Positions 4,872 to 55,428 of a stretch of DNA of 64,000 nt are shown piece after piece (within the stretch, counting starts at the first letter, position 1; each line of letters opens with the position of its first letter). Made by a program: the position numbers and the translations under genes. Origin of the DNA: Candidatus Enterousia sp. GTDB taxonomy: Bacteria; Pseudomonadota; Alphaproteobacteria; Rs-D84. The stretch spans positions 1,457 through 65,456 of the forward strand of contig JAZNAO010000006.1 of the NCBI GenBank assembly GCA_045586565.1. The letters run 5' to 3'. Under the pieces are notes generated by a model. The model saw only the letters and a list, made by a program, of their open reading frames with translations, searched no databases and was not told where the DNA came from.

Positions 4872-5603
4872 ATGACACGATATAAAGTAATCTTGGAATA
4901 TGATGGCACAGGCCTGATTGGGTGGCAAGAAAACCGCCATGGGCCGTCTGTGCAATCAATTATGAAAGATGCCATTGAATGTTTTTGTGGTGCGCGCGTT
5001 GATGTTGTGGCGGCGGGACGCACAGATGCCGGTGTGCATGCGGTTGCGATGACGGCGCACTTTGACATTGATGGTGAACATGATGCCGAAACCGTTATGC
5101 GGGCATTAAATTTTTATTTGGTAAATAAACCTGTGGCGGTGTTGGATTGTGAAATTGTGCCTGATGAATTTCATGCGCGATTTGATTGTGTCGCGCGCCA
5201 TTATAAATATGTTGTTTTAAATCGTGGGCCGTCACCGGTACTGCAACAAAATCGTGTTTATTGGGTGCCAAAGAAATTAGATGTTGATGCAATGCGTGCA
5301 GCCGCAGAAAAATTAATCGGCAATCATGATTTTACCAGTTTTCGTGCATCTGAATGCCAGGCGAAATCCCCAATTAAAACATTGGACAGAATAGAAATAA
5401 CCCAAAACGGCGACGAAATTATTTTTGAATTTTCTGCGCGTTCGTTCTTGCATCATATGGTGCGTAATATTGTTGGTACACTGATTGAAATTGGTCATGG
5501 TAAACCATATGATATTGATGAAGTGTTGGCGGCAAAGAATCGTGCGGCGGCGGGCCCAACGGCGCCGGCGTCTGGATTATATTTTATGCGCGCAGAATAT
5601 TAA
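4872..5603 (+). CDS. truA: tRNA pseudouridine(38-40) synthase TruA
   Basis: Catalytic motif AAGRTDAGVHA, with TruA-typical length and layout. Confidence 0.9.
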   Translation: MTRYKVILEYDGTGLIGWQENRHGPSVQSIMKDAIECFCGARVDVVAAGRTDAGVHAVAMTAHFDIDGEHDAETVMRALNFYLVNKPVAVLDCEIVPDEFHARFDCVARHYKYVVLNRGPSPVLQQNRVYWVPKKLDVDAMRAAAEKLIGNHDFTSFRASECQAKSPIKTLDRIEITQNGDEIIFEFSARSFLHHMVRNIVGTLIEIGHGKPYDIDEVLAAKNRAAAGPTAPASGLYFMRAEY

Positions 5604-7546
5604 TGCCATGGCCGATTGGCGGGTGTGTATTTTATACGACCATTTGGGTACATTATAAATCCACCACGCAATATTTTGTGTGCACATTTTTCTGAATCTA
5701 TATTCCAATAAGACACAATATAATCCACACTTTCATCATTGCATAATTTTTGCAGATTATTCATCAGTGGTACGAACTTTTGGATATAAACAATATTGTT
5801 ATATCTGTATACACCGTTGTCGTGTTTGCGACGTGGGTTTGGTGTGTCGATTGCTTCGTTATTTAATTTCTTCCACGTGTTAAACGCAAAGAAATGATTT
5901 GATGCACGTGATTTATTAAATTCCAGTTTCCCATTGTCATCGATAAATCCAACCAGTTCATTATCATGCGTTGTATAAAATATCGGCTTTGGTGTTGTCG
6001 AAACATAAATTGCCCCAGACATGCAAAACACAATACACAAGATAATATTTAATCTGATTTTGTATGGTGTGATTACAATCAAACTAATCAGTCCCAATAT
6101 AAAACACATTATTGCAGCATTTGAAATATGTGGTACGTCAATTACAGACATTGGCAATTGTGCAATCCAATTTGCAATCTGAAATGCCATGTCATAAATT
6201 TGGTGCGCCCAGTTTAATGGGAATAAAATCCCAAACACAGATAACAATGCGCCGATTATAACCAGTGGCATAATTGTCACTGAAAATATAGGCAATAAAA
6301 TTAAATTACCCAGTATGCTGTATGTCGGAATTGTACCAAAATGCATGGCAACAAATGGGGCGGTAAATATCCCGGCCCACACAGATGTTAAAACAGATGC
6401 ATATGTAATCTTTAATATTTTGTTATGTGGCATTTTCGGTTTAACGACGTCATACATCCATACCAATCCAAATACCGCGGCAAAAGATAATTGAAATCCA
6501 GCCTGCATTACATAGTGCGGATTTATCAAAAACATTAATATAAAGACCATTGCAATATTACGCATTGAAATTGCACTGCGTCCGAAAATAAATGCCATAA
6601 ATACCAGTGTTGTCATACAAAACGCGCGAAATGTCGCCGTGTCTGCCCCAGATAAACACATATAAAATAATAATCCCGCCCACGCGCATATTAACGCCGG
6701 GGATTTTGCCGGTATCCGTCGTGTGATGTATGGAATACTGCGGAATATGAAAAAGAACACAACAAATAACCATCCGCCCAGTAATGTCATATGAAATCCA
6801 CTGATTGACCAAATGTGTCCGACACCGGCAGATGTCCAAATTACATCATCCTTTTCTGGAACCATGTTTTTATATCCCAACACCAAACTGTCGACCAAGA
6901 AAGATTCTGATTTGTGGTGAATAAATTCGCGCAGATTTACACTGTTTGCATGATTGATAATTTTCAAATCTGTGACATAACCCGTCGCAGTCAGGTTATT
7001 AAAATATGCATGTCGTGCCCAATCAAATGTTTCTGGCGCAGGCGCCGGTGACATACCGAACAGTCCAACCGTTGCAGATATATTGTCACCGACATTTGGC
7101 ACAATAATATCATCGCCAATTTTAACACGCACGCGTGCCATCCCATTGCCTGCGCGAATATCTGATGCACGTACCGATAAATACAAACGTTTGCCGTCTG
7201 GGGTATAGTCAATTGATTCAACAATCGCATTTATATTATGGTCGTGTAAATCATATTTTAGTTTTGGTGTGTCGACTAAATGTGTATATATGAACGCATA
7301 ACAAAAACCAAAACAGAGCAGGGCAATCCCGCGAATAATATTTGGAATTTTATTCCAGAATATAATTGTAATTAACCCCAGTGTAATTATCGGCAATCCA
7401 ATGATGTATGGTTCGGCCGGCATAGTAAAATATAACGCGGCGCCAAACGCCATTAAAAATGGCACGAACCAAAACAAGTTTTCAGATTGATATTTCCACC
7501 AATTTTTCATATCCAAATTATAGGAATTTATTCTGTTGCCCTGCAA
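5600..7546 (-). CDS. comEC: ComEC/Rec2-family DNA internalisation channel protein (no metallo-beta-lactamase domain visible)
   Basis: Polytopic membrane protein with a soluble insertion between N-terminal TMs (DUF4131-like), followed by a competence-domain-like TM bundle. I saw no HxHxDH motif anywhere in the protein. Confidence 0.75.
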   Translation of the reverse strand: MQGNRINSYNLDMKNWWKYQSENLFWFVPFLMAFGAALYFTMPAEPYIIGLPIITLGLITIIFWNKIPNIIRGIALLCFGFCYAFIYTHLVDTPKLKYDLHDHNINAIVESIDYTPDGKRLYLSVRASDIRAGNGMARVRVKIGDDIIVPNVGDNISATVGLFGMSPAPAPETFDWARHAYFNNLTATGYVTDLKIINHANSVNLREFIHHKSESFLVDSLVLGYKNMVPEKDDVIWTSAGVGHIWSISGFHMTLLGGWLFVVFFFIFRSIPYITRRIPAKSPALICAWAGLLFYMCLSGADTATFRAFCMTTLVFMAFIFGRSAISMRNIAMVFILMFLINPHYVMQAGFQLSFAAVFGLVWMYDVVKPKMPHNKILKITYASVLTSVWAGIFTAPFVAMHFGTIPTYSILGNLILLPIFSVTIMPLVIIGALLSVFGILFPLNWAHQIYDMAFQIANWIAQLPMSVIDVPHISNAAIMCFILGLISLIVITPYKIRLNIILCIVFCMSGAIYVSTTPKPIFYTTHDNELVGFIDDNGKLEFNKSRASNHFFAFNTWKKLNNEAIDTPNPRRKHDNGVYRYNNIVYIQKFVPLMNNLQKLCNDESVDYIVSYWNIDSEKCAHKILRGGFIMYPNGRIKYTPANRPWH

Positions 7547-7588: not shown

Positions 7589-9160
7589 ATGGCAAGATAT
7601 ATATTTATTACTGGTGGGGTTGTATCAAGTTTAGGCAAGGGCGTCGCAGCGGCAGGTTGCGGCGCCCTTCTTCAATCGCGTGGATATACGGTGCATGCGC
7701 GAAAATTTGACCCGTATTTGAATATTGATCCTGGGACAATGTCACCATTTCAGCACGGTGAAGTTTACGTGACAAATGACGGTTATGAAACAGATTTAGA
7801 TTTAGGATATTATGAACGTTTCTTGGGTGCAAAATTATCCAGAAACGATTCTGTATCTGGGGGGCGAATATATTGGGATGTATTAAATGCCGAACGTCGT
7901 GGGGACTATCTGGGTGGTACAGTGCAAATGATTCCGCACGTTTCAAATAAAATAAAAGAATACATTGCTGCACCAACTGATACAGATTTTGTGGTGTGCG
8001 AAATTGGTGGCACCGTAGGCGATATCGAAGGTAAGATTTTCTTAGAATCAATACGTCAATTCGCAAATGATGTTGGTCGCAAAAATGTTATGTTTGTTCA
8101 TTTAACATTGGCGCCATATTTGGAAAAATCAGGTGAATTAAAAACCAAGCCAACCCAGATGTCTGTTCGACAATTACTGGAAAACGGAATCCAGGCAGAT
8201 ATGCTGATTGTGCGAACGCCACGAATGTTGACGGCCGATGAGCGCGATAAAATCGGAATGTTTTGTAATCTGCCATCCAAAAGTGTCATCAGTGGAATTG
8301 ACGTTGATAATATCTATAAAATACCATTGGCATACGAATCCCAACACGTCTTTGACATTATTGCCAATCATTTTGATTTACCACATGCGCGGGGTGACAT
8401 GACGCGATTTGAACGTATTGAACGATATCTGGATGCAGATTTGCCGACGGTCAACATTGGTATTGTGGGCAAATACTTTAATGTCCCAGACGCGTATAAA
8501 TCATTAAACGAGGCCTTGTTTCATTCTGGTATACAAAATAATGTGCACATAAATTTATGTAAACTGGATGCGGAAAAATTCACCCCAGACGATTGTCGCA
8601 ACATGCATGGAATATTAGTTCCCGGGGGATTTGGTGTTCGTGGCACAGATGGTAAAATTGCCGCTGCAAAATACGCACGTGAAAACAAAATTCCATATAT
8701 GGGGATATGTCTGGGGATGCAGGTTGCAGTTATTGAATTTGCGCGCAATGTATTGGGTATTGATAATGCAAATTCGTCAGAATTTAGTTCTGATTGCACC
8801 CCGGTGATTGGGATTATGTCAGAACACAATGCAGAAAATATGGGTGGCACATTGCGATTGGGCGCATACCCATGCAATATAACACCAAACACATTGGCGC
8901 ACCAGATATATAATACAACACAAATATCCGAACGGCATCGCCACAGATACGAAATGGACATATCTTTAGAGAAACGCTTTGCCGATGCTGGTATGATAAT
9001 ATCTGGGCGCAGTCCCGATGGAACATTGCCGGAAATGATTGAGCTTTGCAATCATCCCTTCTTTATTGCGGGTCAATTTCACCCAGAATTTCAATCGTCG
9101 CCATACACGGGCCATCCGATGTTTAATGCATTTGTATCTGCGGCAAAAAAACAAATATAA
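7589..9160 (+). CDS. pyrG: CTP synthase
   Basis: N-terminus ARYIFITGGVVSSLGKG, glutaminase Cys motif GICLGMQ, and C-terminal HPEF. Confidence 0.95.
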   Translation: MARYIFITGGVVSSLGKGVAAAGCGALLQSRGYTVHARKFDPYLNIDPGTMSPFQHGEVYVTNDGYETDLDLGYYERFLGAKLSRNDSVSGGRIYWDVLNAERRGDYLGGTVQMIPHVSNKIKEYIAAPTDTDFVVCEIGGTVGDIEGKIFLESIRQFANDVGRKNVMFVHLTLAPYLEKSGELKTKPTQMSVRQLLENGIQADMLIVRTPRMLTADERDKIGMFCNLPSKSVISGIDVDNIYKIPLAYESQHVFDIIANHFDLPHARGDMTRFERIERYLDADLPTVNIGIVGKYFNVPDAYKSLNEALFHSGIQNNVHINLCKLDAEKFTPDDCRNMHGILVPGGFGVRGTDGKIAAAKYARENKIPYMGICLGMQVAVIEFARNVLGIDNANSSEFSSDCTPVIGIMSEHNAENMGGTLRLGAYPCNITPNTLAHQIYNTTQISERHRHRYEMDISLEKRFADAGMIISGRSPDGTLPEMIELCNHPFFIAGQFHPEFQSSPYTGHPMFNAFVSAAKKQI

Positions 9161-9183
9161 AATCCCCCGTCTGGGGGATTTTC
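9158..9183. terminator. Bidirectional terminator between pyrG and skp-like gene
   Basis: ATCCCCC-GTCT-GGGGGAT hairpin flanked by an A-run and a T-run. Confidence 0.75.
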
Positions 9184-9849
9184 TTAGAAACCTTGTGGTT
9201 TGTCCATTTTGACCTTGGATACTTTTTTATCCAATGCCTGGATTACTTCGTTTGTAATGTCCAGATTTTCTGTGTTTGCACCTGTGCGCGCCATACGACC
9301 GTCGATTACCAATGACAGTTGTTTTTTATCAATGATACCTTCGATAACCGGGTCCAGATGTTTTACCTGAATATCATTCAATGCCTTTTGGAAAGACATT
9401 TCAACACTCTGTGCACGTTCGGTCAATTCGCGTTGCAGATTTGTCACTTTGTTTTGATAGTCAACAACGCGACGTTGTAATGCTTCACGTGACAGAACGT
9501 CTTGTGATTTTTCGATTTCTTCCTTTTCTTCTTCCAGTTCTTTCTGCTTTTTTGTCAATTCATCACGCAGTTTACTTTCATATGATTCTTTCTGTGCGCG
9601 TAAATCAGCCAACGCCACAGCATCATTTTGAATTGCGTCCATACGTATAACCGCGATACGCAGGTTTGCCGCGCTTGCGGCATCTGTGGTTACGACTTCC
9701 ATTGCATCGGCAACAGATGCGCCCGTATCAGAATTTAATGCCGATACCCCCCATACACCCAATGCCGCGACTGCGATAACAACCGCCGCCACAATGCCAG
9801 TTTTTTTATAGTTTTTTACAACCTGATTTTCATTTGATTTTTTTACCAT
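9184..9849 (-). CDS. OmpH/Skp-like periplasmic chaperone (membrane-anchored)
   Basis: N-terminal hydrophobic anchor, a long charged coiled coil, and a C-terminal ...LDITNEVIQALDKK resembling the OmpH family. Confidence 0.55.
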   Translation of the reverse strand: MVKKSNENQVVKNYKKTGIVAAVVIAVAALGVWGVSALNSDTGASVADAMEVVTTDAASAANLRIAVIRMDAIQNDAVALADLRAQKESYESKLRDELTKKQKELEEEKEEIEKSQDVLSREALQRRVVDYQNKVTNLQRELTERAQSVEMSFQKALNDIQVKHLDPVIEGIIDKKQLSLVIDGRMARTGANTENLDITNEVIQALDKKVSKVKMDKPQGF

Positions 9850-10600: not shown

Positions 10601-11059
10601 TTATTCAACAATAAACGATATTTGGTTTGTATCAGATTCAAAACAGTTTTCTGCATATCCTGTTTCAAAGCCGTTTACCAGCATTTTTGTTGCCCACTGT
10701 GGTTTCATGGTTGAAAAATAATCACATTCACCTGTTGTTAAATCAACCAAGTTGATGGAAAATGTCGCGCCATCTGTACTGGATGTTATGGACCATCCTT
10801 CGCCACCAATTGGGGCGCGATCTGATTGTAATGCGCCCGCCTTGATAAGATAGTCCACAGACACACCTGTATAATCATCGCGCATTTCCAATAACAATTT
10901 TGTGTTTGCTGCGATTTGTTCCAATTCTGCATTTGCGATTGTTCGCTTTTGATTTTCGCGCATTATGCGAAACATTCCAAATGCCGCCACTGTCATCAGA
11001 CCAGTAATCGCCATAACACCGATAACTTCAATCAAAGACCGTCCAGATTGTTGTTTCAT
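10601..11059 (-). CDS. Type IV pilin / pseudopilin-like protein (152 aa)
   Basis: Class-III signal peptide pattern MKQQSG|RSLIEVIGVMAITGL with Glu at +5. C-terminal Cys pair (GEC...ENC). The start overlaps the dnaX stop (TAATG). Confidence 0.65.
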   Translation of the reverse strand: MKQQSGRSLIEVIGVMAITGLMTVAAFGMFRIMRENQKRTIANAELEQIAANTKLLLEMRDDYTGVSVDYLIKAGALQSDRAPIGGEGWSITSSTDGATFSINLVDLTTGECDYFSTMKPQWATKMLVNGFETGYAENCFESDTNQISFIVE

Positions 11060-13173: not shown

Positions 13174-14532
13174 TTGCAACAACAACGCGGTAATTTTTTA
13201 ATGCAGGCTCTGTTGGCATTGGGGGTAATTTTTGCATTTATGCCATTTATTACACGCCAATTGGCGGGGCGCGATACCGATGCGCGTATGTATTCTTCAA
13301 CGCGCCAGGTTGATATTGCGCAAAGTGCCGCCCAGATTTTTATTCGTGAAAATGCGAATAATTTACCATATGAAACAACGGTTATATCGGGAAATGATTT
13401 TGCTGATTTATTGGAACCGTATGGCCTGCCATTGGGTTTTGTGCCACGCACGGCCCTGGGCCAGAATATTGCGTTGGTAATCAATAAAACGCCAGTATCT
13501 GTATCTGCGTATCTGGAATTGTCTGGTGGTAATTTATCCGCGTTGGATATTGCAGAGTTGGCGCGTCGTATTGGATTTTATGCGATGGTCACAGATGATG
13601 GTGTAAATGTTGGTATTGAATTGTCGGATGTTTATTCTGATATTGTGCGTCGTAATGAACCGAATTTGGAAAACAGTGGTTTTTTAACCGATTTAGATAT
13701 GGGTGGTTTCGTATTTAATAATGCCGGCAATTTATTCGCTGTGCGTGGCACATTTGATAGTGCTCAATTTAACAGTATGACTGTAAATGGACTGGAATCG
13801 GGGCGCAAGGCAAAAAATACAATTGGCACCATGATTGCAGACAAGGCTGTGTTTCAAAACAAGTCTGGCGAATCAGCGCTAACTTTGACACGTGGGACAT
13901 TGTATGCAAATACTGTAAATGGTCGCACGTTATCTTTGTTTGGTGATACGGGAAATCTGGCTGTGAATGATGCGTCGGCATATGAGTTGGCGATGACTGC
14001 GGGTCGAACGTCTTTTTCGGGGCCTGAAAAATGGAATGTTCGCGGGAATTTGGTATCAGATCACATCAATTTTAGTGTTGAACGATTAGATGTGTCGTCG
14101 TATATCAGTGCAACACGCGGTCAAGATGTATTTATTGATTATGATACATTGGATTACAGCACTAAATCTGGAATCGAAGTCGGAACAATATACACATCAA
14201 ATATCACTGTGCGTGATCAGACGTCCAGTGCATTAAACGATGGTATGTCTGGGGCGGTTATTTTAGATGTGCGCCCAGGCGGCACAACACTGTTGCCGGA
14301 TGCGTTGGTTGGTGATATCAACAACGACGAATTTGCAATTATATCTGATGTGTTATCAGATGACGATGCAACGATTGCGTGTAAAAAAATAATAGATGAT
14401 TTCGAAGGTGTGTATAACAAGCAGTCTTTATCGCAATATTTAATATGTCAATATGTATATTGGCAACGTCTGGAAAAGCGCATCAATATCAAACAATGTT
14501 TAATGGCGGGTGGCAGTGACTGTGTTAAATAA
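13174..14532 (+). CDS. Large pilin-like protein 1 (452 aa; Gln instead of Glu at +5)
   Basis: TTG start behind a strong RBS (AGGAGGGGG). N-terminus MQQQRG|NFLMQALLALGVIFAFMPFITRQ. Paralogous to the next two ORFs (shared ...IG...DDG..YG and LDMGG motifs). Confidence 0.55.
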   Translation: MQQQRGNFLMQALLALGVIFAFMPFITRQLAGRDTDARMYSSTRQVDIAQSAAQIFIRENANNLPYETTVISGNDFADLLEPYGLPLGFVPRTALGQNIALVINKTPVSVSAYLELSGGNLSALDIAELARRIGFYAMVTDDGVNVGIELSDVYSDIVRRNEPNLENSGFLTDLDMGGFVFNNAGNLFAVRGTFDSAQFNSMTVNGLESGRKAKNTIGTMIADKAVFQNKSGESALTLTRGTLYANTVNGRTLSLFGDTGNLAVNDASAYELAMTAGRTSFSGPEKWNVRGNLVSDHINFSVERLDVSSYISATRGQDVFIDYDTLDYSTKSGIEVGTIYTSNITVRDQTSSALNDGMSGAVILDVRPGGTTLLPDALVGDINNDEFAIISDVLSDDDATIACKKIIDDFEGVYNKQSLSQYLICQYVYWQRLEKRINIKQCLMAGGSDCVK

Positions 14533-15751
14533 CAAGATATTTTCAGATAATTGTCATGGTGCCAGTGTTCTGGAAGTGTTGCTGGCAATGGCGATTGTTG
14601 CCATGGCGACACCTTTTGTATATCGGCAAATTGCCCAAACAAATCATACGATTCATGATATTGCAATTGCGCGCAAGATTATGTCGACGCGTGAATCCGC
14701 ACTAAACTTTATCAGAATAAATCAAGATAAATGGCCTGATAATGCCCAGATTAAATTAGATGATTCTGAATTGGATATTATATCAACAGATGCAGCAGCG
14801 GGCTTTATTGATAAATATTCTGTAAACGGCGCAGTTATAACAGATGTATATTTGGCATTTGTTACAGCAGATACAGGATTGCGGACAAATCAAATTGCCC
14901 GTCATATTGGTTCTGATGCGGCGGTGGTCAGCGATGATGGTGTTGCGTATGGTAATACTTGGGCGGTTGCAGCGCCTGATTTTATTCCTGGTGATTTAAT
15001 ATATCGTATATCGCGTGACATTGCGGGCACAGATACATCAATATATCTGCATCGTGGAACATCTGGTGATGATGGTTTAAATATTATGCAACGTGATTTA
15101 GATATGTCGAATCATCACGTTTATAATGTTGCGACTTTGAATGGAAAATCTGTTCGTGCACGAAATGCAAATACTGTGTTTGTCGACACAACAGATGTTG
15201 TTACCAACAGTGTATATTTTTCATCGGGTGCGAATTTAGAGAATGATTCATCTGTATTTGGTAATGTTCGTGTAACTGGTGATATATCTGGGTTTCGTAA
15301 TATTTATGCAGATAATTTAAACGGTCGTGGATATACGACCACAGGGCGCATTGTAACAGACCGCGCCACGATTATAGATACTATAAATGTTGCGAATGAC
15401 TTTGTGTTAAAATCTGATTCTACACGCACGGTCAGCGCATTTACAGGTATTTCGGCCAGTTCTGTTTTGACACCATACATATCTGCCGAAGAGATGATAT
15501 TTTATGATAATTTTGGATTGACTGTATCTGGTGAATTGCTGATGTCAACCTCAACACCATTAAAGTTGGGCAGTTGGTCATTCCCATCAACAAAGCCGCC
15601 TGTGTTTAAGTCTTTTAATGTGTCACGGGCAACACGTCCGTCAATGCCGTCGCGTAATGAATTTGATGCAGTAACCCGTCGTGGGTGGCAGTCAACAGAT
15701 ACACTAACCCCACCGGTCTTTCAACAAACATATATATCAACGATAAATTAA
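14510..15751 (+). CDS. Large pilin-like protein 2 (413 aa)
   Basis: GTG start region overlaps the upstream gene. N-terminus ...CHG|ASVLEVLLAMAIVAMATPFVYRQ with Glu at +5. Contains YLHRG...DLDMSNHHVYN. The exact start is uncertain. Confidence 0.55.
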   Translation: MAVTVLNNKIFSDNCHGASVLEVLLAMAIVAMATPFVYRQIAQTNHTIHDIAIARKIMSTRESALNFIRINQDKWPDNAQIKLDDSELDIISTDAAAGFIDKYSVNGAVITDVYLAFVTADTGLRTNQIARHIGSDAAVVSDDGVAYGNTWAVAAPDFIPGDLIYRISRDIAGTDTSIYLHRGTSGDDGLNIMQRDLDMSNHHVYNVATLNGKSVRARNANTVFVDTTDVVTNSVYFSSGANLENDSSVFGNVRVTGDISGFRNIYADNLNGRGYTTTGRIVTDRATIIDTINVANDFVLKSDSTRTVSAFTGISASSVLTPYISAEEMIFYDNFGLTVSGELLMSTSTPLKLGSWSFPSTKPPVFKSFNVSRATRPSMPSRNEFDAVTRRGWQSTDTLTPPVFQQTYISTIN

Positions 15752-15752
15752 A

Positions 15753-17069
15753 ATGACAAAACGATACGGAATTTTTTCAAAATACAATCAATCGCGTGGC
15801 GGCATGTTGATTGAATTACTGCTTAGTGTGGCATTGGCATCTGTGATAATACCATTCATTTTCCAGTATCAACAGAACGCGGTAACGCGTGCGCAAAATA
15901 TTGCGATTACAGAACAAATGTCGGATATTCAATCTGCATTGGAAAGATATATAATTGCCAATCGCGAAGATTTATTAAAAACTGTGGGTCGCACTATTAC
16001 GCGCATATCTATGTCTGATTTGGTGCCATATGGTGTCCCAGATTCTGTATTGACCGCCGGCGATGAATTGTTTCAACTGCGCATCTTAAAATCGTCAGAT
16101 TATGGTGACCAGTCTACATTACAGGGAATCGTTGTGCGAAACTCAGAAGATATATCCCCATTGCGAACACGTGAAATTGTGAATCTGTCTGGGGGCAGTA
16201 TGGGTTTTATTGATGACACTCATGCGTATGGTACATTTGGTACATGGCATACAGATACAGTTGACATGGGCATTGATATGGATAACGCGATTATTGAAAC
16301 GACACCTGTGAATCGTGACAACGCGTTGTATTTGTGGCGCATACCATCTGATGATGCGTCAGACTCGCGCATGATGACGGCGTTAAACCTGGGTGGGCAT
16401 GATATATTAAATTCATCGTTTGTAAATGCGAATCATATTGAATTTTCAGAAATGTTGTCTGCACCTGCGATTGCGACGGGCGATATTATCTTTCAAAACA
16501 GAACAACGATAGATTGGCCATTGGATGCATCCAACGCCAGTGTCGCGGGTATGTTATCTTCGGATGCCAAGAATATGGAAATAACCAATTCTTTGACGAT
16601 TGGTGACGTTGCAAAATTATCATCGTTGACGGCATCAAATTTATGGGTTGGCAATTTAACGTTGGGTGGTTTATCTTTGCACGGTGATGTAGAAGTCGCG
16701 ACCTTGGCCATAAATCAGACACTGGATATGACTGCCGGTCGTATCGAAGCAATGTTTGTATCTGTTGGTTTTGCAGGTTCTATGACGCCGCGTCTGGTTG
16801 TTTACGACAGAATCGAAGATTCAACGAATTCTGGATACTATTGGGATTTGAAATCAGAAATGGCAAGCTTTGCGGACGCAACGTTGGTTGAATTAAATCG
16901 TATGGCAACCTTGGCGTCATATTACGAAGGTGATGCGTCGACTGAATCTGGCCAGATTTTTGGTGCGGTATCTGCGAATAAAAATGCGACTGTATCTGAT
17001 TACATGAACGCGATAAATGAAATTCAAACGCGTGTTCGTGCCAAATATCGTCAGTTGAATTTGCAATAA
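15753..17069 (+). CDS. Large pilin-like protein 3 (438 aa)
   Basis: N-terminus ...SRG|GMLIELLLSVALASVIIPFIFQYQ with Glu at +5. Contains YLWR...LNLGGHDILN. Starts 1 nt after the upstream stop. Confidence 0.55.
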   Translation: MTKRYGIFSKYNQSRGGMLIELLLSVALASVIIPFIFQYQQNAVTRAQNIAITEQMSDIQSALERYIIANREDLLKTVGRTITRISMSDLVPYGVPDSVLTAGDELFQLRILKSSDYGDQSTLQGIVVRNSEDISPLRTREIVNLSGGSMGFIDDTHAYGTFGTWHTDTVDMGIDMDNAIIETTPVNRDNALYLWRIPSDDASDSRMMTALNLGGHDILNSSFVNANHIEFSEMLSAPAIATGDIIFQNRTTIDWPLDASNASVAGMLSSDAKNMEITNSLTIGDVAKLSSLTASNLWVGNLTLGGLSLHGDVEVATLAINQTLDMTAGRIEAMFVSVGFAGSMTPRLVVYDRIEDSTNSGYYWDLKSEMASFADATLVELNRMATLASYYEGDASTESGQIFGAVSANKNATVSDYMNAINEIQTRVRAKYRQLNLQ

Positions 17070-19043: not shown

Positions 19044-19117
19044 CATTTTCCCCATTTTTCCCTTTTCAAAGTGCTTTGTTTGTGTTAAAATAAAGTAACT
19101 AATAATGGAGTAAGGGG

Positions 19118-22100
19118 ATGTCATTTCTCAAAAATACAGTAAGTTTATTGGCGGTTTTCTGCGTTGTTCCGGCGGCTTTTGGTGCCACGGCGCGCCCCAG
19201 TGTTTTAAACACTGCGACGGCGGTTTCGGCAACTGGTGCGGTTCGTCGTGTGGCGATGCCAACGATGACATCGTATATCACTGGCTCGGCGGGTGGTGTT
19301 ACAAACAACAATAATGGCAACTCTGGTTCCAGCAACTTATTAGACAGCATTGAATGCATCGATGCATACACCGAATGTATCAAATCCGAAGATGTGTGCG
19401 GCGAAGATTTGTCAGAATGCACAACAAACGTATTGTTCCATGGCAAAATGCCCCAGTGTGTAAGCACCCTGGCCCAATGTGAACCGGATGGGGTTGATGC
19501 ATTATTTGGCACAAAGAATGTAACCGATTTGTCGTTCTATGATTCAAATAATTCTGCGGAATATGATGCCGAAGATGGTGAGGTTATTCGTTACACATAC
19601 CCAACAGACGGCAGTGTTCTGGGGCAAATGATTATATCTGCGGCGATTGAAAATCAGTATGATACACAAACATGCGTGAAACGTTATATGTCATGCTTGA
19701 ATAAAGACAGTGTTTGTGGTGCAGACTTTGAATTATGTACCGACGAACGTGAATTTAAAAAGCAGGCATTGTTCTGTGATTCAACCCTGGCCCGTTGCCA
19801 GGCAGACGGTGTTCGCGAATTATTCGGGGTTTCAAAATGGTCGCCACATAAAATGGGTGCGGATGGCAAAATCGAAGGTTCTTCCCGTGTTGGTGTGGCA
19901 ATCAAAGACGGTGCAGATTTGGCGGCGTTGAACGCGGTTTCTACCTGTTACAAGGTTGTTGAACAGTGTTTCTTGGGCGCATGTTCGGCCAATCCGTTGC
20001 GTTGTTTGGCGGGGTCGAATTTATCGACATTGACGGCGGCAAATGATATTGCGGCGGACGGTATCACAATCACATTGTCAAATGACAGTGCGCCATCAAC
20101 CCCAACAGACGTAAATCGTTATCTGCGCACATCGTGCCAGGATACAATTGGTGCAAATAAATTCTGTCACATGACATTCTTGGGCAAAAATCCAAGTAAG
20201 AAAGACTTGGCGGATGTAGATGTCCAATCAGAAGTCTTTGACGATGCAATCAGCGAACGTAAAAAATACGTTGAATCAAAAATCCAAGATTTGATGACAC
20301 AGTTCGATAAACGTGCCAAGGATAAATGTGTTGAAACAATTCGTTCATGCGCAATGCGTTCCTGTGGCGAAGGTGTCGGTTCTGTATGTTATTCATCTGT
20401 ATATGGCGCGAATGGCGGAAATACAATTGCGGGTCCGGCCACACGTCCAGATATCAAAACGGCATGTGAATCTGTTGTAAATACCGATGTGAATTGCCAA
20501 TATGCATATTCAACTGTTATAGATAATGGTGTGTATTCATACAATTACATCCAAAATTCTGTATTTGATACATTATTCCCAGAATATGCTGCCGACAAAA
20601 CAAACAATGATCCAATCGGTGTAATCGGGTCGTTAAATTCGTCCCTGTCGACCAGTTATAATGCCGCTGCTCTGGCGCAAATGAAGAAGCAATGTCAATC
20701 TGTCGCGACCAGCTGTGTTAAATCAATGTGTGGCACGGATTACCAGAATTGCTATCGCAATCGAACAGATATCTTGTCTGATTTGACCAATACGGATAAT
20801 GCAAAGTTTGATACGTCAATGAACAAGGTTGGTGGTGTTCTGGATTATACAATTGTATTGGGATTGTGCATGAACACGGTTAAAAACGCCGATGTATGTG
20901 ATGAACACCTGAAAATCCAAAAGGCCAAATTAGATTTGGAAAAGACAACGGAAAATGTATGGGGAACACAATCGTCTGTCCGTGATGGCTGGATTGATGC
21001 TGGTGGTGCCAAGAAGTTTGAAGAAGGGATGGTTCATTCCAAAGACGAAAATGGTGCCGATTTATGCACAAATGCTGCAGGGGACCAAGGTGTTTGCTAT
21101 GACGTTGATGCCAATGGTGATGTTTTTAATAAACCTGTGATGATATCTGCAGACCTGTATAAAACGAACCAGGCCACAACATCATTATTCCGTGAATTGT
21201 TGGTTGATTTAGAATACGAAGCCCAGGCGAAGTATAACGCCAAATTGACGAAACAACAGAATATGTGTCTGGCGGCAAATTCTGGTGGTGTTGTTGGCGC
21301 TGGCGATATGGGTTCAACATTCATGTGGGCAAAATTGAAAAGGGGCAAGGTTCCGGCCGATTATTCAATGAATGGTTTAACCAGTGACCAAATTGTCCCA
21401 AGTAATGAATTGTATGGTTCATTCTGCCGTGTGCGTGTGACACTGCAATCCACAGACCCAACCGTATCTGAATGGTTAAACAGTACCGAAGGTCAGAAAT
21501 ATGCAACGCGTTATTTTGCGGCGGGTGATGCATTTACATGCGGTTCATGGATACCTGTTGGCGATGAAGGAACATGCCATGACGATACCGCCGCGGGCAT
21601 CAGAAGATGCAAAGGTGGCTCAGGATTACGTGGCCTGGCGCAAAAGGTTGGCGAAGCCACATATACATACGACAAACAGAAATCCGACACAATTCTGCAA
21701 ACAATGTTGCCAGTGGTTGGATTGCTGGGTGGTGGTATTGGTGGTGCATATCTGGGCGCCGGCATCGAAGACGGTTCTGTATTCGGCGGTCTGACGGGTA
21801 AAAAGAGCACAAAATCAGACAGCAAGACAGCAAAGACTGCAAACGATAGATGTTCGAATGCCATCGATATGGCCAAAACAAAATTAGCGGAAGCAAATCC
21901 TAGCCTGGAAAGTGTAAGAAGTTTAGCCAAAACAGCGGCTGATGAATTAGAAGACATGGACAAGGTTGTGTACAAAAACCTGGAGTATTGGCCAGATGGT
22001 ATGACAACTACTGTTACTGAAACTATTTCTAAAGGAGAAGGGGAGCAAACTAAATATTATTGTGGCGGGACAGAAGTCAATACGAAAGTACCAGCACGGT

Positions 22101-22432
22101 GCGTTGGTGATAAGTTATTGGCCGATGCAAGAACAGAAATCACACCCATTTTGAATAGACTAGAAGGTTATTGTGAATCTGCGGTCGAAGACGAAGATGC
22201 CAATGCTAAAAAGAAAAAGGGTGCCGCCGCCGCGGGGGCTGTGACAACCGGTGTGATCAGCAGTGTTCTGACATGGGGCGTCACACGCAGCATCATTGAT
22301 GCACAACGCACCAAAGAACAACAGGCCGCAATTGATGAATTCATGGATTCATTGGGTTCAAAAATCAATTGTGTTGTCGGTGGGGATTCCATTGCGGTAT
22401 ATGGCGACACATTGGTCACCAGTATGGAATAA
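19118..22432 (+). CDS. Large Cys-rich secreted/membrane-anchored protein (1104 aa), unknown family
   Basis: RBS GGAG..AAGGGG and signal peptide ...VVPAAFG|A. Contains duplicated Cys modules, a Gly-rich hydrophobic segment (LPVVGLLGGGIGGAYLGAGI) and a second C-terminal hydrophobic segment. Followed by a strong terminator. Confidence 0.7.
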   Translation: MSFLKNTVSLLAVFCVVPAAFGATARPSVLNTATAVSATGAVRRVAMPTMTSYITGSAGGVTNNNNGNSGSSNLLDSIECIDAYTECIKSEDVCGEDLSECTTNVLFHGKMPQCVSTLAQCEPDGVDALFGTKNVTDLSFYDSNNSAEYDAEDGEVIRYTYPTDGSVLGQMIISAAIENQYDTQTCVKRYMSCLNKDSVCGADFELCTDEREFKKQALFCDSTLARCQADGVRELFGVSKWSPHKMGADGKIEGSSRVGVAIKDGADLAALNAVSTCYKVVEQCFLGACSANPLRCLAGSNLSTLTAANDIAADGITITLSNDSAPSTPTDVNRYLRTSCQDTIGANKFCHMTFLGKNPSKKDLADVDVQSEVFDDAISERKKYVESKIQDLMTQFDKRAKDKCVETIRSCAMRSCGEGVGSVCYSSVYGANGGNTIAGPATRPDIKTACESVVNTDVNCQYAYSTVIDNGVYSYNYIQNSVFDTLFPEYAADKTNNDPIGVIGSLNSSLSTSYNAAALAQMKKQCQSVATSCVKSMCGTDYQNCYRNRTDILSDLTNTDNAKFDTSMNKVGGVLDYTIVLGLCMNTVKNADVCDEHLKIQKAKLDLEKTTENVWGTQSSVRDGWIDAGGAKKFEEGMVHSKDENGADLCTNAAGDQGVCYDVDANGDVFNKPVMISADLYKTNQATTSLFRELLVDLEYEAQAKYNAKLTKQQNMCLAANSGGVVGAGDMGSTFMWAKLKRGKVPADYSMNGLTSDQIVPSNELYGSFCRVRVTLQSTDPTVSEWLNSTEGQKYATRYFAAGDAFTCGSWIPVGDEGTCHDDTAAGIRRCKGGSGLRGLAQKVGEATYTYDKQKSDTILQTMLPVVGLLGGGIGGAYLGAGIEDGSVFGGLTGKKSTKSDSKTAKTANDRCSNAIDMAKTKLAEANPSLESVRSLAKTAADELEDMDKVVYKNLEYWPDGMTTTVTETISKGEGEQTKYYCGGTEVNTKVPARCVGDKLLADARTEITPILNRLEGYCESAVEDEDANAKKKKGAAAAGAVTTGVISSVLTWGVTRSIIDAQRTKEQQAAIDEFMDSLGSKINCVVGGDSIAVYGDTLVTSME

Positions 22433-22459: not shown

Positions 22460-22486
22460 AAAATCCCCCACCCGGGGGGATTTTTT
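22460..22486 (+). terminator. Intrinsic terminator after the 1104-aa gene
   Basis: TCCCCC-ACCCG-GGGGGA hairpin followed by T6. Confidence 0.75.
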
Positions 22487-22568
22487 ATCGCAGTAGCCGT
22501 CGCGGAATAATCTCCTTTGCTGGCGAAGGGGTGTCAGGCAGTGAAGGGGTAGTGGGAATTTAACAATA

Positions 22569-22652
22569 CCGCGATAAATAAAAGTTTAGTCTTGCATAAC
22601 ATTTTACAAGAATCTGTGATTCTTGTCATTGCGCGCGCAGCGTGGCAATCCA
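22569..22652 (-). repeat. Dispersed palindromic repeat arm (copy R1)
   Basis: Its reverse complement aligns almost base-for-base with 53191-53283 (CTGGATTGCCACG...ATGACAAGAATCACAGATTCTTGTAAAA...AAACTTTTATTTATCGCGG). Confidence 0.8.
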
Positions 22653-33054: not shown

Positions 33055-33759
33055 ATGGAATTGCTGATTAAAGGTTCGACCGAATTAAACAAAATGTTTA
33101 TGGCGTTGCAACGTACTGCGTCTGGTCTGCGCCGTGATTTTGGAGAGGTGGAAAACCTGCAACAATCGTTGCGTGGCGCACGTGATTTTGTGCAAAAGGC
33201 ATCTGCCCGTATCGAAGAAAGTATTTTAAACGACCTGTTGTTGGTTCGTCCATCGGCGGGTTTGTTGACACCAAACGTATCGCGTGCGGGTGATGGACGT
33301 GACGAATTTGTTTTGTCATTGTCTGGTGCGTCTAATTTTGTTCGTGGCAATCCGCATTTTGCAATATCATTGGCATTGCGTTCAAATGACGAAACAAAGA
33401 TTGCGTTGGTATATTCCCCAATTGACGAAAGATTGTACTATGCAGAATCCGAACGTGGTGCATATATATTCTCGGCGTATCATTCTGCCCGAATTAAGGT
33501 GTCTAATTTGTCAGACCCGGCGGATGTAACGGTTGGTTACAATACATCTGATAATCGTGAAACGATTGGTGATGTTCGTCGTACGGGATGTCCGGCATTG
33601 GATTTGGCATGGGTTGCGGCGGGTAAATTAGATGCATATGTATCAGACCCACTGGATTTTGCAGAAATTGCGGCGGGCGACCTGATTGTCCGCGAAGCAG
33701 GCGGCCGAATTGAAATGATGACTGACCTGGTTGCAACGAACGGTCATATTGAAATTTAA
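33055..33759 (+). CDS. suhB: Inositol monophosphatase/SuhB-family protein with degenerate active-site motifs
   Basis: The family backbone is present (RRDFGEVENLQ, NF..G.PHFAISLAL, ALDLAWVAAGKLDAYV, VREAGG). The DPxDGT motif is replaced by LSLSGAS. Confidence 0.7.
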   Translation: MELLIKGSTELNKMFMALQRTASGLRRDFGEVENLQQSLRGARDFVQKASARIEESILNDLLLVRPSAGLLTPNVSRAGDGRDEFVLSLSGASNFVRGNPHFAISLALRSNDETKIALVYSPIDERLYYAESERGAYIFSAYHSARIKVSNLSDPADVTVGYNTSDNRETIGDVRRTGCPALDLAWVAAGKLDAYVSDPLDFAEIAAGDLIVREAGGRIEMMTDLVATNGHIEI

Positions 33760-33785
33760 AATCCCCCATTTGGGGGATTTTTTTG
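33757..33785 (+). terminator. Intrinsic terminator after suhB-like gene
   Basis: ATCCCCC-ATTT-GGGGGAT hairpin followed by T7. Confidence 0.8.
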
Positions 33786-33799
33786 AGTTCAAGTTTCTT

Positions 33800-33993: not shown

Positions 33994-34059
33994 TGCGCGG
34001 TAATGACAAGAATTAAAAATTCTTGTAAAATGTTATGCAGATTTAAACTTTTATTTAAG
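33994..34059 (+). repeat. Dispersed palindromic repeat arm (copy F3), inverted relative to R2
   Basis: ...GGTAATGACAAGAATTAAAAATTCTTGTAAAATGTTATGCAGATTTAAACTTTTATTTAAG. It runs directly into the -35 box of the downstream promoter. Confidence 0.7.
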
Positions 34060-34090: not shown

Positions 34091-34358
34091 ACATTTGTCG
34101 GTGGGATTTTTCACCGATGGGGTGTGGAAACCCGTTATCTAAGCGTCTATGCACGATTGCATAACGCGCCAATGGCGTGTTTTTTGTGCAGTGTATGGAT
34201 GAAAATTTTTTTCTCCTGATCTTATGTGGTCAGGAGGGCTGCGAATATATTGAATAAGCACACAATTCTTAGATATTGTTTCCAACCTCCTGGCCACCTA
34301 TCTTTTATGGTGGTTTTTGTTTAATTTGCGTATGCAGAACGAAAGGGAGGAAAGTAAT
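34091..34358 (+). promoter_or_regulatory. Conserved structured leader (attenuator-like), copy A
   Basis: Hairpins at 34098-34117 and 34120-34133, and hairpin plus T-run at 34164-34185. Alternative segments: S1 34213-34221, S2 34226-34238, S3 34286-34298, S4 plus T5 34309-34318. Conserved in copies B and C. Confidence 0.6.
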
Positions 34359-35102
34359 ATGCAAAAATTTTTAAAACTAACCGGCGTATCAGTTTTGGCA
34401 ATCGTTGCCGCAACGGGCGCCAATGCCGCGGGATACACCTGTGAAGAATTGATTGAATACACAGCATGTAATGATGGGTGGTATTTAAACGATGGTGATT
34501 GTATAGAAAGCACAACATGTCCATCGGGCAGTTATTTACGTCCGTTTTGTTCAGTGAGCGATTGTGGTGTGAGTTATGATTCTGAGACCGAAGAATATAC
34601 TTGTTGTGATGGTGATTATGTTGCAAACCTGGAATGCATACAATGCCCATCTGTTGGTCTGACTGACAAAGACGGCAAAGTGGTGTCGGTTAAATCACAG
34701 CCTGGCTCAATGGGTGTTGGTTCGTGCTATATTGACCCGAATGCATATTTCAAGGATAGCACGGGGACATATCATTATAAGTCCAATTGTTCTGTGCGTT
34801 TCTGGGAAACATCCCCAGACACAGAAGAAGAATGTACCAGTCTTGGTTTTGAATGGGTATATACAAGTGGTGAATCAGATTCTTATTATGTTTGTGCGTT
34901 GAACATGCGGATTAGTGAACAGTTGGGTTTAATAAAGACAGAAGAAGAATGTAACGCGGCAGCTGAAAAAATATATGGCTTGGTATGGAAAGATGAAGGA
35001 GATTATTATTATTCCAGATGCGAAACCATAAACTACGAAGAGAGTTACTTTATTTTTAGGGATGAATGGTATGTTTTTGGTGATCCTATTTCTCACTCCT
35101 AA
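34359..35102 (+). CDS. Secreted Cys-rich protein, family member A (247 aa)
   Basis: RBS GGGAGGAAAG and signal peptide ...ATGANA|AGYTCEELIEYTAC. Shares the N-terminal module and the CP..GLTDKDG...SC.ID...F.D..G.Y.YK..C module with the protein at 55429. Confidence 0.75.
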   Translation: MQKFLKLTGVSVLAIVAATGANAAGYTCEELIEYTACNDGWYLNDGDCIESTTCPSGSYLRPFCSVSDCGVSYDSETEEYTCCDGDYVANLECIQCPSVGLTDKDGKVVSVKSQPGSMGVGSCYIDPNAYFKDSTGTYHYKSNCSVRFWETSPDTEEECTSLGFEWVYTSGESDSYYVCALNMRISEQLGLIKTEEECNAAAEKIYGLVWKDEGDYYYSRCETINYEESYFIFRDEWYVFGDPISHS

Positions 35103-35105
35103 AAT

Positions 35106-35134
35106 AAAAAATCCCGCAATCGCGGGATTTTTTA
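35106..35134. terminator. Bidirectional terminator between Cys-rich gene A and fabZ
   Basis: A-run, then ATCCCGC-AATC-GCGGGAT hairpin, then T6. Confidence 0.75.
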
Positions 35135-35569
35135 AACTGCCTTTTGTAATACTGCGGTAAAGGTTGATTCTGCGACCTTTTTACCACCCACAAATGCAAT
35201 TCCGTGGAATTTATACAATTTCATCTTGGTCATCAATAATTCAACATGCAATTCCAACTTATCGCCCGGGTGCACCATATGTGAAAACTTAATCTTTTCC
35301 ATTGTGGTAAAATACCCCAATGTATCTTTGCGTTCCGCCTCTGACAGACGCGCAAACGCAACATAGCATGCGGTCTGGGCCAACGCTTCGATTTGCAATA
35401 CGCCCGGCATAATCGGATTGCCAGGAAAATGGCCCGTGCACCAGAATTCGTCATCGCGGACATATTTTACACCAACCGCACTGGTGTCATTATATTCACG
35501 AATTTCGTCCACCAACCGCATGTCCCCGCGATGTGGTATAACTTTTTCGATTTCTTTTGCATCAATCAT
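35132..35569 (-). CDS. fabZ: 3-hydroxyacyl-ACP dehydratase FabZ
   Basis: PHRGDMRLVD and GHFPGNPIMPGVLQIEALAQ. Confidence 0.92.
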   Translation of the reverse strand: MIDAKEIEKVIPHRGDMRLVDEIREYNDTSAVGVKYVRDDEFWCTGHFPGNPIMPGVLQIEALAQTACYVAFARLSEAERKDTLGYFTTMEKIKFSHMVHPGDKLELHVELLMTKMKLYKFHGIAFVGGKKVAESTFTAVLQKAV

Positions 35570-53190: not shown

Positions 53191-53283
53191 CTGGATTGCC
53201 ACGTTCGTTTCACTCCCTCGCGATGACAAGAATCACAGATTCTTGTAAAAATAGTTGTATAACTAAACTTTTATTTATCGCGG
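53191..53283 (+). repeat. Dispersed palindromic repeat arm (copy F1, solo)
   Basis: CTGGATTGCCACGTTCGTTTCACTCCCTCGCGATGACAAGAATCACAGATTCTTGTAAAA...AAACTTTTATTTATCGCGG. Near-identical in reverse complement at 22569-22652. Confidence 0.8.
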
Positions 53284-53298
53284 TATTCTATTTACCTG

Positions 53299-55040: not shown

Positions 55041-55067
55041 AAAATCCCCCTTTTGGGGGATTTTTTT
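55040..55067 (+). terminator. Intrinsic terminator after Cys-rich gene B
   Basis: ATCCCCC-TTTT-GGGGGAT hairpin followed by T7. Confidence 0.8.
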
Positions 55068-55127
55068 GAGATACGAGATATGAGACATGTGACAGGAATA
55101 TTTATCAATGTGTCCTTATTTTATTTA

Positions 55128-55156: not shown

Positions 55157-55428
55157 TCTTTTGTCGATGGGATTTTTCATCGATGGGGTGTCAAGACCCG
55201 TTTCATTGGCGTTCATGCACGATTGCATAACACGCCATGTGGCGTATTTTTTATGCGATATGTGTATGGGTGATAAATTACTCCTGACCCGTGGTCAGGA
55301 GGGCTGTGAATATATTGAATAAGCACACAATTCCAATGATTGTCTTGAACCTCCTGGCCACCTTTTGTGAAAAACGGTGGTTTTTTGTTTATTTTGGCAA
55401 ACAAAACAAAGGAAAAGGAGAGTTTGTT
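55157..55428 (+). promoter_or_regulatory. Conserved structured leader, copy C
   Basis: H1 carries a compensatory change (TCGATG/CATCGA). Hairpin plus T-run at 55232-55252. Segments: S1 55281-55289, S2 55291-55303, S3 55350-55362, S4 plus T6 55376-55386. Confidence 0.6.

Follow-up and report, generated by a model that had tools for sequence, protein, structure and literature searches.

On the forward strand of a 64,000-nucleotide stretch of DNA from Candidatus Enterousia sp. (contig JAZNAO010000006.1), which we refer to as the window, lies a 3.3-kb gene for a large cysteine-rich protein, here called the target. A first-pass annotation had described its product as a large disulfide-stabilised protein of the envelope or facing a host. 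We found that the gene is intact and conserved, that it is restricted to one bacterial lineage, that its repeated modules are real, and that the patterns of cysteine pairing and of hypervariability hold. An envelope or outward-facing role, which we infer from these patterns, is the best reading of the present evidence.

An orphan gene family of the order Rs-D84

The open reading frame (ORF) comprises 1104 uninterrupted codons, begins with ATG and is preceded by a GGAG/AAGGGG ribosome-binding region. Its intactness was confirmed, and more than 900 database proteins match it over the full length. Among 1.84 billion representatives, the family makes up 200 clusters at 50% identity. The positions of the features, in nucleotides of the window and in amino acids (aa) of the protein, are collected in Table 1. 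The promoter-like site listed there suggests that the target gene may have a transcription start of its own; a consensus scan of this kind is not evidence of function.

Table 1. Features of the target gene and of the encoded protein
Feature	Position in the window	Strand	Remark
Complete coding sequence, 1104 aa and stop codon	19118..22432	+	Founding member of an orphan family confined to the order Rs-D84
Promoter-like site, TTTTCA-17 nt-TAAAAT, TG upstream	19063..19091	+	Consensus scan only; 74-nt gap after rluD
Sec-type signal peptide, aa 1-22, probable signal peptidase I site AFG↓A	19118..19183	+	Hydropathy; site from the -3/-1 rule
Motifs TARPSV (aa 24-29) and RR(x)MPTM (aa 43-50)	19187..19267	+	R26, R44 and P48 at least 90% conserved
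N/G/S/T-rich low-complexity linker, aa 51-76	19268..19345	+	Length and sequence variable
Module A1, aa 80-131, six-Cys, helical, C-x6-C-x6-C-x6-C-x12-C-x6-C	19355..19510	+	Helices in the model
Module A2, aa 186-237, duplicate of A1	19673..19828	+	Five of six Cys invariant; Cys186 in 99% of sequences
Module B1, aa 255-365, helical, C277/284/289/296 and C340-x9-C350	19880..20212	+	
Module B2, aa 366-470, helical, C404/411/416/424 and C450-x9-C460	20213..20527	+	
Module B3, aa 500-610, helical, C526/533/538/545 and C584-x9-C594	20615..20947	+	Strongly conserved SMNKVGGVLDYTIVLGLC block inside
Variable region 1, aa 611-677, beta-hairpins with C650/C660	20948..21148	+	Diverges faster than its neighbours
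Long helix aa 678-719, beta-rich domain aa 735-832, helix aa 836-863 leading to the first glycine zipper	21149..21700	+	
Glycine-zipper segment 1, aa 862-894, overlapping GxxxG motifs	21701..21799	+	
Hypervariable domain (insert), aa 895-1034, helical bundle with beta-hairpin insert	21800..22219	+	
Small-residue hydrophobic segment 2, aa 1035-1056	22220..22285	+	Preceded by KKKK here
Conserved C-terminal tail, aa 1057-1104, helix followed by three beta-strands, invariant Cys1085	22286..22429	+	High-confidence model
Intrinsic-terminator-like hairpin TCCCCC-ACCC-GGGGGG (22464-22479) with T-run	22464..22489	+	32 nt past the stop codon

The target gene is carried by 232 GTDB species genomes, and the family occurs only in Alphaproteobacteria of the gut that belong to the order Rs-D84. 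Among 80 of these 232 loci for which the source was listed, all are gut-metagenome bins labelled as Alphaproteobacteria, Ca. Enterousia or 'uncultured Rickettsiales', save one that is labelled Bacteroides fragilis. The latter locus (L037, CAVGNU010000002.1) is a contig of 102 kb that carries the Rs-D84 gene together with its typical neighbours, and it has probably been mis-binned or mislabelled. Distant members, with 27-41% identity, come from termite-gut 'Rickettsiales' bins. The gene is apparently single-copy and was present in every surveyed relative, while tblastn detected no homologue in 72,556 plasmids and none in phage collections.

Genomes of the order Rs-D84 measure 0.75-1.0 Mb and lack the tricarboxylic acid cycle, respiration, flagella and the standard sugar or amino-acid transporters; those who described the order infer that its members live as obligate symbionts or parasites (PMC12306168). 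Rs-D84 and Ca. Enterousia are widespread in the guts of humans, livestock, birds and termites (PMC12306168). This description supports the earlier suggestion that the window stems from a bacterium with a reduced genome which probably depends on a partner (PMC12306168).

None of the described families matches the target. When the target itself, 46 family members and the excised glycine-zipper segments were scanned against Pfam and NCBIfam, nothing scored above threshold. A phmmer search with the target and a profile of 72 sequences, both against the PDB sequences, returned matches with E-values of at least 0.0017 (a designed binder, XaxA/YaxA and similar), which we judged to be effects of coiled-coil or glycine-rich composition. 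The labels 'PE/PPE C-terminal domain' (NCBI) and 'YcfJ' (JGI) that are attached to one homologue each (P0118 and P0221, respectively) were likewise treated as composition-driven. AlphaFold2 with the family alignment gave a model with a mean predicted local distance difference test score (pLDDT) of 79, in which 527 residues reach 90 or more and most of the scaffold exceeds 90. Between aa 77 and 630 the model is mostly helical; after this part come a long helix, a domain rich in beta structure and, between the hydrophobic segments, a bundle of helices. Foldseek gave a best E-value of 1.0 for this model against the PDB, and the resemblances of the AlphaFold models extend to generic four-helix bundles only. 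A search of a literature library produced no mention of the protein. These searches bear out the first-pass annotation, which had recognised no family, and a search for orthologues in relatives recovered the family at full length, restricted to Rs-D84 and with no hidden Markov model match to a characterised family. The target belongs to a new orphan family, whose architecture is likewise new but draws on principles that are each known from elsewhere.

Cysteine parity and the modules of the scaffold

The protein contains 43 cysteines, 42 of which follow the signal peptide. A signal peptide and an Asn/Gly/Ser-rich linker had been noticed before, and both are present. A lipobox is absent: the signal peptide ends in AFG↓A or AFA↓V, and Cys15, found in 31% of homologues, stands outside a lipobox context. 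The segment between signal peptide and linker is modelled with a pLDDT below 50 and is variable apart from its two motifs, TARPSV and R-R/x-M/L-P-T/S-M/L, which are kept family-wide even at 22% identity; homologue P0130 has the first of them twice. The two motifs might act as a docking peptide. Their use as a common sorting signal was rejected, since no other ORF in the window contains them.

The modules A1 and A2 of 52 residues lie exactly where the first-pass annotation had placed them. They have the same cysteine spacing and agree in 22 of 52 positions. In a profile-profile comparison with hhalign (72 homologues), they aligned with a probability of 99.7% and an E-value of 2.4e-25, and they are therefore a true internal duplication rather than a chance likeness. 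A1 is missing from about 28% of the family, namely from distant members, hence the duplication is lineage-specific. The cysteine positions of module A are near-symmetric (80/121, 87/114 and 94/101), a spacing from which the module might be a stapled helical hairpin.

The three shorter modules of the form C-x6-C-x4-C-x6/7-C that had been reported are present as well (aa 277-296, 404-424 and 526-545), and each of their cysteines is invariant in the family. A C-x9-C pair comes after each of them (340/350, 450/460 and 584/594), so that units of about 100 residues arise. These units are only weakly similar to each other, with hhalign E-values of 1e-5 to 9e-4 and probabilities of 23-81%. Regularly spaced cysteines on helices are known from the twin CX9C/CX3C helical hairpins of the CHCH domain and of the small Tim proteins. 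Judged by their spacing, the C-x6-C and C-x9-C pairs of the target would likewise staple antiparallel helices. However, spacing, size and context differ from those of the CHCH and small Tim proteins, and there is no match in sequence or fold.

Cysteine parity, module profiles and segment counts were determined for a set of 72 homologues. Their alignment has 27 invariant columns, and 25 of these are cysteines. The number of cysteines in the mature protein ranges from 32 to 48 and is even in 71/72 homologues. It is odd in the ectodomain, the part before the first hydrophobic segment, in 70/72, and even in the insert, the domain between the two hydrophobic segments, in all 72 (2, 4, 6 or 8 cysteines). 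The tail has one cysteine in 69 homologues and three in the other 3. On a neighbour-joining tree, parsimony requires at least 29 changes of the insert number, which is even every time. The whole chain appears to be disulfide-bonded because the parity is fixed segment by segment. From parity and invariance, we conclude that the target is probably held by about 21 intramolecular disulfides, which supports the earlier description of a disulfide-stabilised protein.

In the simplest reading, the cysteines of the insert pair among themselves, and Cys1085 of the tail pairs with one of Cys717, Cys770 and Cys808, the three conserved 'odd' cysteines in the stretch aa 678-863. The strands of the tail are predicted confidently in the model, which fits a pairing of Cys1085 with the ectodomain, and they probably pack onto the beta domain.

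A cysteine pattern of such high conservation could also belong to a purely structural protein, which would stiffen or tether the envelope by disulfide cross-links in the style of the chlamydial cysteine-rich outer-membrane complex and would have no role in recognition. The gene is core and apparently single-copy in a lineage with a reduced set of envelope genes, several other cysteine-rich exported proteins are encoded in the window, and in some relatives PBP1a-MliC-MraY-FtsW-MurG come after the target gene. Still, we consider this explanation very unlikely. The strict even parity, of the molecule and of its segments, points to intramolecular and not to intermolecular disulfides, and a domain that is replaced wholesale would be left unexplained. 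Moreover, the Pfam and NCBIfam scans of the target gave no match to OmcB or OmcA.

A hypervariable insert between two glycine-zipper-like segments

The first-pass annotation had seen a Lys/Glu-rich region between the two hydrophobic stretches. Such a composition is present (K 12%, E 9%), but the region is no mere charged spacer: it is a folded helical domain of about 140-150 residues with four cysteines. Measured from aa 885, the insert is 81-292 aa long in the homologues. Compared with the closest relative (L087, 81% identity overall), the insert is 55% identical, whereas most other regions reach 81-100% and both glycine-zipper segments 100%. For this pair, the ratio of nonsynonymous to synonymous divergence (dN/dS, Nei-Gojobori) is 0.71 in the insert and 0.15 in the ectodomain.

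The same contrast was found in 44 pairs whose ectodomain dS is not saturated, with a median dN of 0.41 in the insert against 0.06 in the ectodomain and a median dS of 1.28 or saturated against 0.76; these pairs are partly redundant, and the poor alignment of unrelated alleles inflates both dN and dS, so that the ratios are indicative only. Pairs with ectodomains that are 95-98% identical have inserts with only 22-39% identity (e.g. L003/L015 and L007/L008). Once the ectodomain identity drops below about 80%, the insert identity is at background, about 21%. The raised dS and the wholesale replacement speak for an exchange of alleles by recombination, beyond relaxed constraint. Variable region 1 behaves in a similar but milder way, with a median identity of 0.21 and a dN of 0.27-0.31 against 0.08-0.10 in its flanks. 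Silent copies of the insert were seen neither in the window nor in the flanks of about 10 kb at 86 loci.

Relative to L087, the glycine-zipper segments 21701-21799 and 22220-22285 have a dS of 0.07 and 0, respectively, while that of the ectodomain is about 0.67 and that of the insert 0.5. This collapse, clear in few pairs, hints at recombination breakpoints around an exchanged cassette, although it could reflect a constraint at the nucleotide level instead.

An up-down helical bundle with comparable allelic diversity is OspC of Borrelia, a lipoprotein. The insert of the target resembles it in the type of fold (about 95 residues) and in allelic replacement between close relatives. Unlike in OspC, the variable domain of the target is an insert in a large scaffold.

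Both hydrophobic stretches that had been noted near the C-terminus, the first of them Gly-zipper-like, are present (aa 862-894 and 1035-1056). Their character is kept across the family, with a Trp upstream, GxxxG repeats, and small as well as aliphatic residues. Alpha-helical glycine-zipper segments that are embedded in the outer membrane have been described for SlyB and YfgH (bioRxiv 10.64898/2025.12.22.696046). The target shares GxxxG-rich hydrophobic segments of about 20 residues with the glycine-zipper 2TM lipoproteins (SlyB, YfgH, OsmB and the Rickettsia 17-kDa antigen; PF05433/PF13488). In contrast to the SlyB/YfgH type, these segments are attached to a cysteine-rich scaffold of 840 residues.

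Using a crude sum of Hessa values, we obtained median insertion energies of +4.4 kcal/mol for segment 1 and +3.9 kcal/mol for segment 2 across the family, whereas membrane helices encoded in the same window (the polytopic proteins, ComEC, FtsW and MraY) range from -3 to +2.5 kcal/mol. A positive-inside bias is absent family-wide, the K+R number being 3.3 before and 1.7 after segment 1. The positive-inside argument for a cytoplasmic loop was rejected, as it is valid in the target sequence only and the KKKK flank is not general. Hence, the 'C-terminal anchors' of the first-pass annotation are not ordinary inner-membrane anchors, judging by insertion energy, charge bias and the cysteine parity of the insert.

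These results bear on a possible inner-membrane protein, with a periplasmic N-terminal domain and tail, two transmembrane helices, and the variable domain as a cytoplasmic loop. Two hydrophobic stretches of about 20 residues after a signal peptide would suit this topology, as would the K-rich flanks on the loop side in the target sequence and the predicted return of the tail to the ectodomain. However, we regard it as quite unlikely. An even number of cysteines in every loop through all its changes is expected of disulfides and not of cytoplasmic cysteines, and an insert with disulfide bonds would not lie in the cytoplasm. Furthermore, loops with two or six cysteines do not fit four-cysteine zinc sites, and the energies of about +4 kcal/mol lie well outside those of the real membrane helices in the window. 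A family-wide positive-inside bias is also absent.

The explanation that we favour, tentatively and with a confidence somewhat short of even, is that a disulfide-stapled scaffold, lying wholly outside the cytoplasm, displays a recombining helical-bundle domain, with the glycine zippers at or within a membrane, presumably the outer one. The protein would be exported via Sec, and the whole of it would stand outside the cytoplasm. Its scaffold would comprise the two duplicated six-cysteine modules, the three cysteine-stapled helical units and a stalk/beta domain. A helical bundle with disulfides of its own would be inserted in the beta domain through the two weakly hydrophobic glycine-zipper-like segments; after this insert the chain would return, and Cys1085 of the tail would lock it to the scaffold. 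The pair of glycine zippers would fix the insert within or across a membrane, for which the outer membrane of the bacterium itself is the best candidate, and the conserved scaffold would lie below it. The insert is proposed as the exposed part because it is hypervariable and exchanged as a unit between close relatives, and it would face selection from outside by a partner cell, host immunity or phage. Its likely task would be recognition or attachment at the surface of a bacterium that is believed to live at the expense of other cells.

Several observations weigh against this explanation. AlphaFold models both glycine-zipper segments as low-confidence coil with a pLDDT of 30-40 and not as confident helix. 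The segments of the target score below every Pfam glycine-zipper model (PF05433 Rick_17kDa_Anti, PF13488 Gly-zipper_Omp and PF13441 Gly-zipper_YMGG); the best score in the family, 21.3 bits against a cut-off of 25, was that of segment 1 of the distant homologue P0199, and Gly-zipper_Omp matched one of 46 family members with an E-value of 0.007. Unlike the known glycine-zipper lipoproteins of the outer membrane, the target lacks a lipobox, and 81-292 residues separate the two segments in the 72 homologues, whereas those of the SlyB/YfgH type form a compact hairpin of about 45 residues. To our knowledge, there is no pathway that places a helical segment of a non-lipoprotein in the outer membrane. 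Insert alleles shared across lineages were not seen. The hypervariability of the insert, taken alone, would also fit an unconstrained spacer, although the raised dS and the wholesale replacement oppose this. In addition, we saw no disulfide-forming enzyme (thiol oxidase) encoded in the window, and Rs-D84 lacks a respiratory chain (PMC12306168) from which the oxidant for the disulfides might come.

Some of the same data would suit a soluble protein, periplasmic or secreted, in which the glycine-rich segments act as hinges, as oligomerisation zippers or, as in alpha-pore-forming toxins, as a latent device for insertion into the membrane of a partner. The whole chain appears to be disulfide-bonded and exported, the glycine segments are modelled as low-confidence coil, and the organism is expected to rely on other cells. 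Weak profile matches also connect aa 894-1024 with XaxA/YaxA (E 0.06-0.08), while no significant similarity to ClyA-type toxins of this kind was found in sequence or fold. Nevertheless, the hydrophobic GxxxG character and the upstream Trp are kept family-wide, which goes beyond the needs of a hinge. The membrane-inserting part of a toxin is usually conserved, whereas in the target no part varies more than the one between the two segments. We therefore think that a soluble protein is unlikely. A beta-barrel of the outer membrane or an autotransporter found no support either: the C-terminus reads ...TSME (...IEIK in distant members), the models contain no barrel, and Pfam gave no match.

For the displayed scaffold that we favour, the closest functional analogue is TraN, which stabilises mating pairs in F-like conjugation (PMC9246713) and to which the target shows no homology. 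In TraN, a cysteine-rich protein of the outer membrane, the core is conserved, and a variable 'tip' selects the surface protein of the partner (PMC9246713). Like TraN, the target is Sec-exported, has more than 20 conserved cysteines, probably all in intramolecular disulfides, and combines a conserved core with a variable region. As in TraN, its C-terminal part would fold back on the N-terminal part, and helical segments rather than a beta-barrel would mediate the association with the membrane. On the other hand, PF06986 matched neither the target nor any of 46 family members (Pfam, E ≤0.1). TraN has about 600 aa and is mostly beta, while the target, with its 1104 aa, is mostly helical. TraN is plasmid-borne in a tra operon, whereas the target is chromosomal and core to its order, and neither plasmid nor phage collections contain it.

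A bolder form of the same idea would be a hitherto unknown mode of showing a variable domain on a Gram-negative surface. The two glycine-zipper helices of this non-lipoprotein, probably in an oligomer, would span the outer membrane and present the recombining, disulfide-bonded helical bundle above a periplasmic scaffold with about 17 disulfides, and the molecule as a whole would be the chief device by which Rs-D84 recognises a partner or host. We regard this form as improbable. A gene of 3.3 kb that is present in all surveyed relatives with genomes of less than 1 Mb, and that has invariant cysteines and a single domain swapped between near-identical strains, is a strong candidate for an interface of partner contact, and the target is the most plausible contact molecule of this uncultured, partner-dependent gut lineage. 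It also raises the question of how about 21 disulfides per molecule come about in an anaerobe without a respiratory chain, and of how glycine-zipper helices could carry a folded domain across or into the outer membrane without a lipid anchor. Moreover, the insert could be used as a strain marker in metagenomes.

Gene neighbourhood and other features of the window

Neighbours of the target gene in the window include rluD, dnaQ, uvrD and prepilin-like genes. Before the target gene, and in the same orientation, lies a block that encodes three proteins of 413-452 aa with a prepilin-type N-terminus, a Zn-ribbon membrane protein, an exported protein of 152 aa, and rluD. This block was found in about 66-70 of 83 related loci. 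It is missing in some Enterousia loci and in distant members (L019, L079, L085 and L086); the genes before the target are miaB-like and ybeY-lnt in L085 and a resolvase gene in L086. A conserved operon partner was therefore rejected. The downstream side is not conserved.

The three prepilin-type proteins (window 13174-17069, plus strand) have no Pfam match. A few homologues of the third one, of 438 aa, match Pfam Shufflon_N, the N-terminal region of PilV. A type IV pilin of 152 aa (10601-11059) and ComEC (5600-7546) are encoded nearby, both on the minus strand. The published description of Rs-D84 reports no type IV pili (PMC12306168). Such neighbours could mean that the target is a PilY1-like accessory or tip protein of a type IV filament built from the upstream prepilin-like genes, or its cargo. 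Like the tip adhesins PilY1/PilC, the target has about 1100 aa and a signal peptide and stands downstream of minor-pilin-like genes in most relatives, which recalls the order pilVWX-pilY1. Yet the linkage is not universal, the housekeeping gene rluD intervenes, and the target gene has a promoter-like site and a terminator of its own. Neither a PilY1/PilC domain (PF05567) nor a C-terminal beta-propeller was found in the target or its model, and PilY1 has no glycine-zipper segments, of which the target has two. Conserved gene order is, furthermore, weak evidence of a functional link in reduced genomes. A part in a filament thus appears very improbable, and we take the prepilin linkage as a lead and not as evidence of a shared system, because it is lost in places and because the target gene comes with a separate promoter-like site and terminator.

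A functional link of the target to a family of smaller cysteine-rich proteins, proposed in the first-pass annotation, was not supported, with BLASTP E-values of at least 0.7 and no conserved linkage. These small paralogues (34332-35102, 53568-55040 and 55336-56376, all on the plus strand) are exported proteins of 256, 490 and 346 aa with 16-26 cysteines. They have the mature N-terminus 'A(A/D)GYTCE...C..GWYL' and no Pfam match, and they share repeated 5' leader/promoter sequences (repeat families D1, D2, D5, D7 and D8).

A promoter-like element of 56-69 nt (ATGACA-17-TAAAAT) occurs at 22565-22633 on the minus strand and at 34002-34057 and 53219-53287 on the plus strand. The latter two copies precede two of the small cysteine-rich genes. 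The first lies just beyond the terminator of the target gene and is directed toward the 3' end of the latter; it could be an orphan promoter, the start of a small RNA or a relic. A scan of the window with Rfam yielded a tRNA only and no match for this element. Hairpins of the type AAAATCCCCC-loop-GGGGGATTTTTT stand after several genes, among them the target gene, and five of these terminator hairpins are near-identical (9159-9188, 22460-22489, 33758-33787, 35108-35137 and 55041-55070).

Between 25615 and 32159, the window encodes five adjacent polytopic membrane proteins of 396-486 aa, four on the minus and one on the plus strand, none of which has a Pfam match at E ≤5. From their similar size and topology they look like paralogues, and they are placed in a way reminiscent of the tandem VirB6-like genes of Rickettsiales. 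In L001 and L002, a gene of the TraG/VirD4 type is found close to the syntenic region. In L087, a gene for a DUF559 (endonuclease-like) protein of 133 aa, absent from the window, stands between rluD and the target gene (5439-5840).

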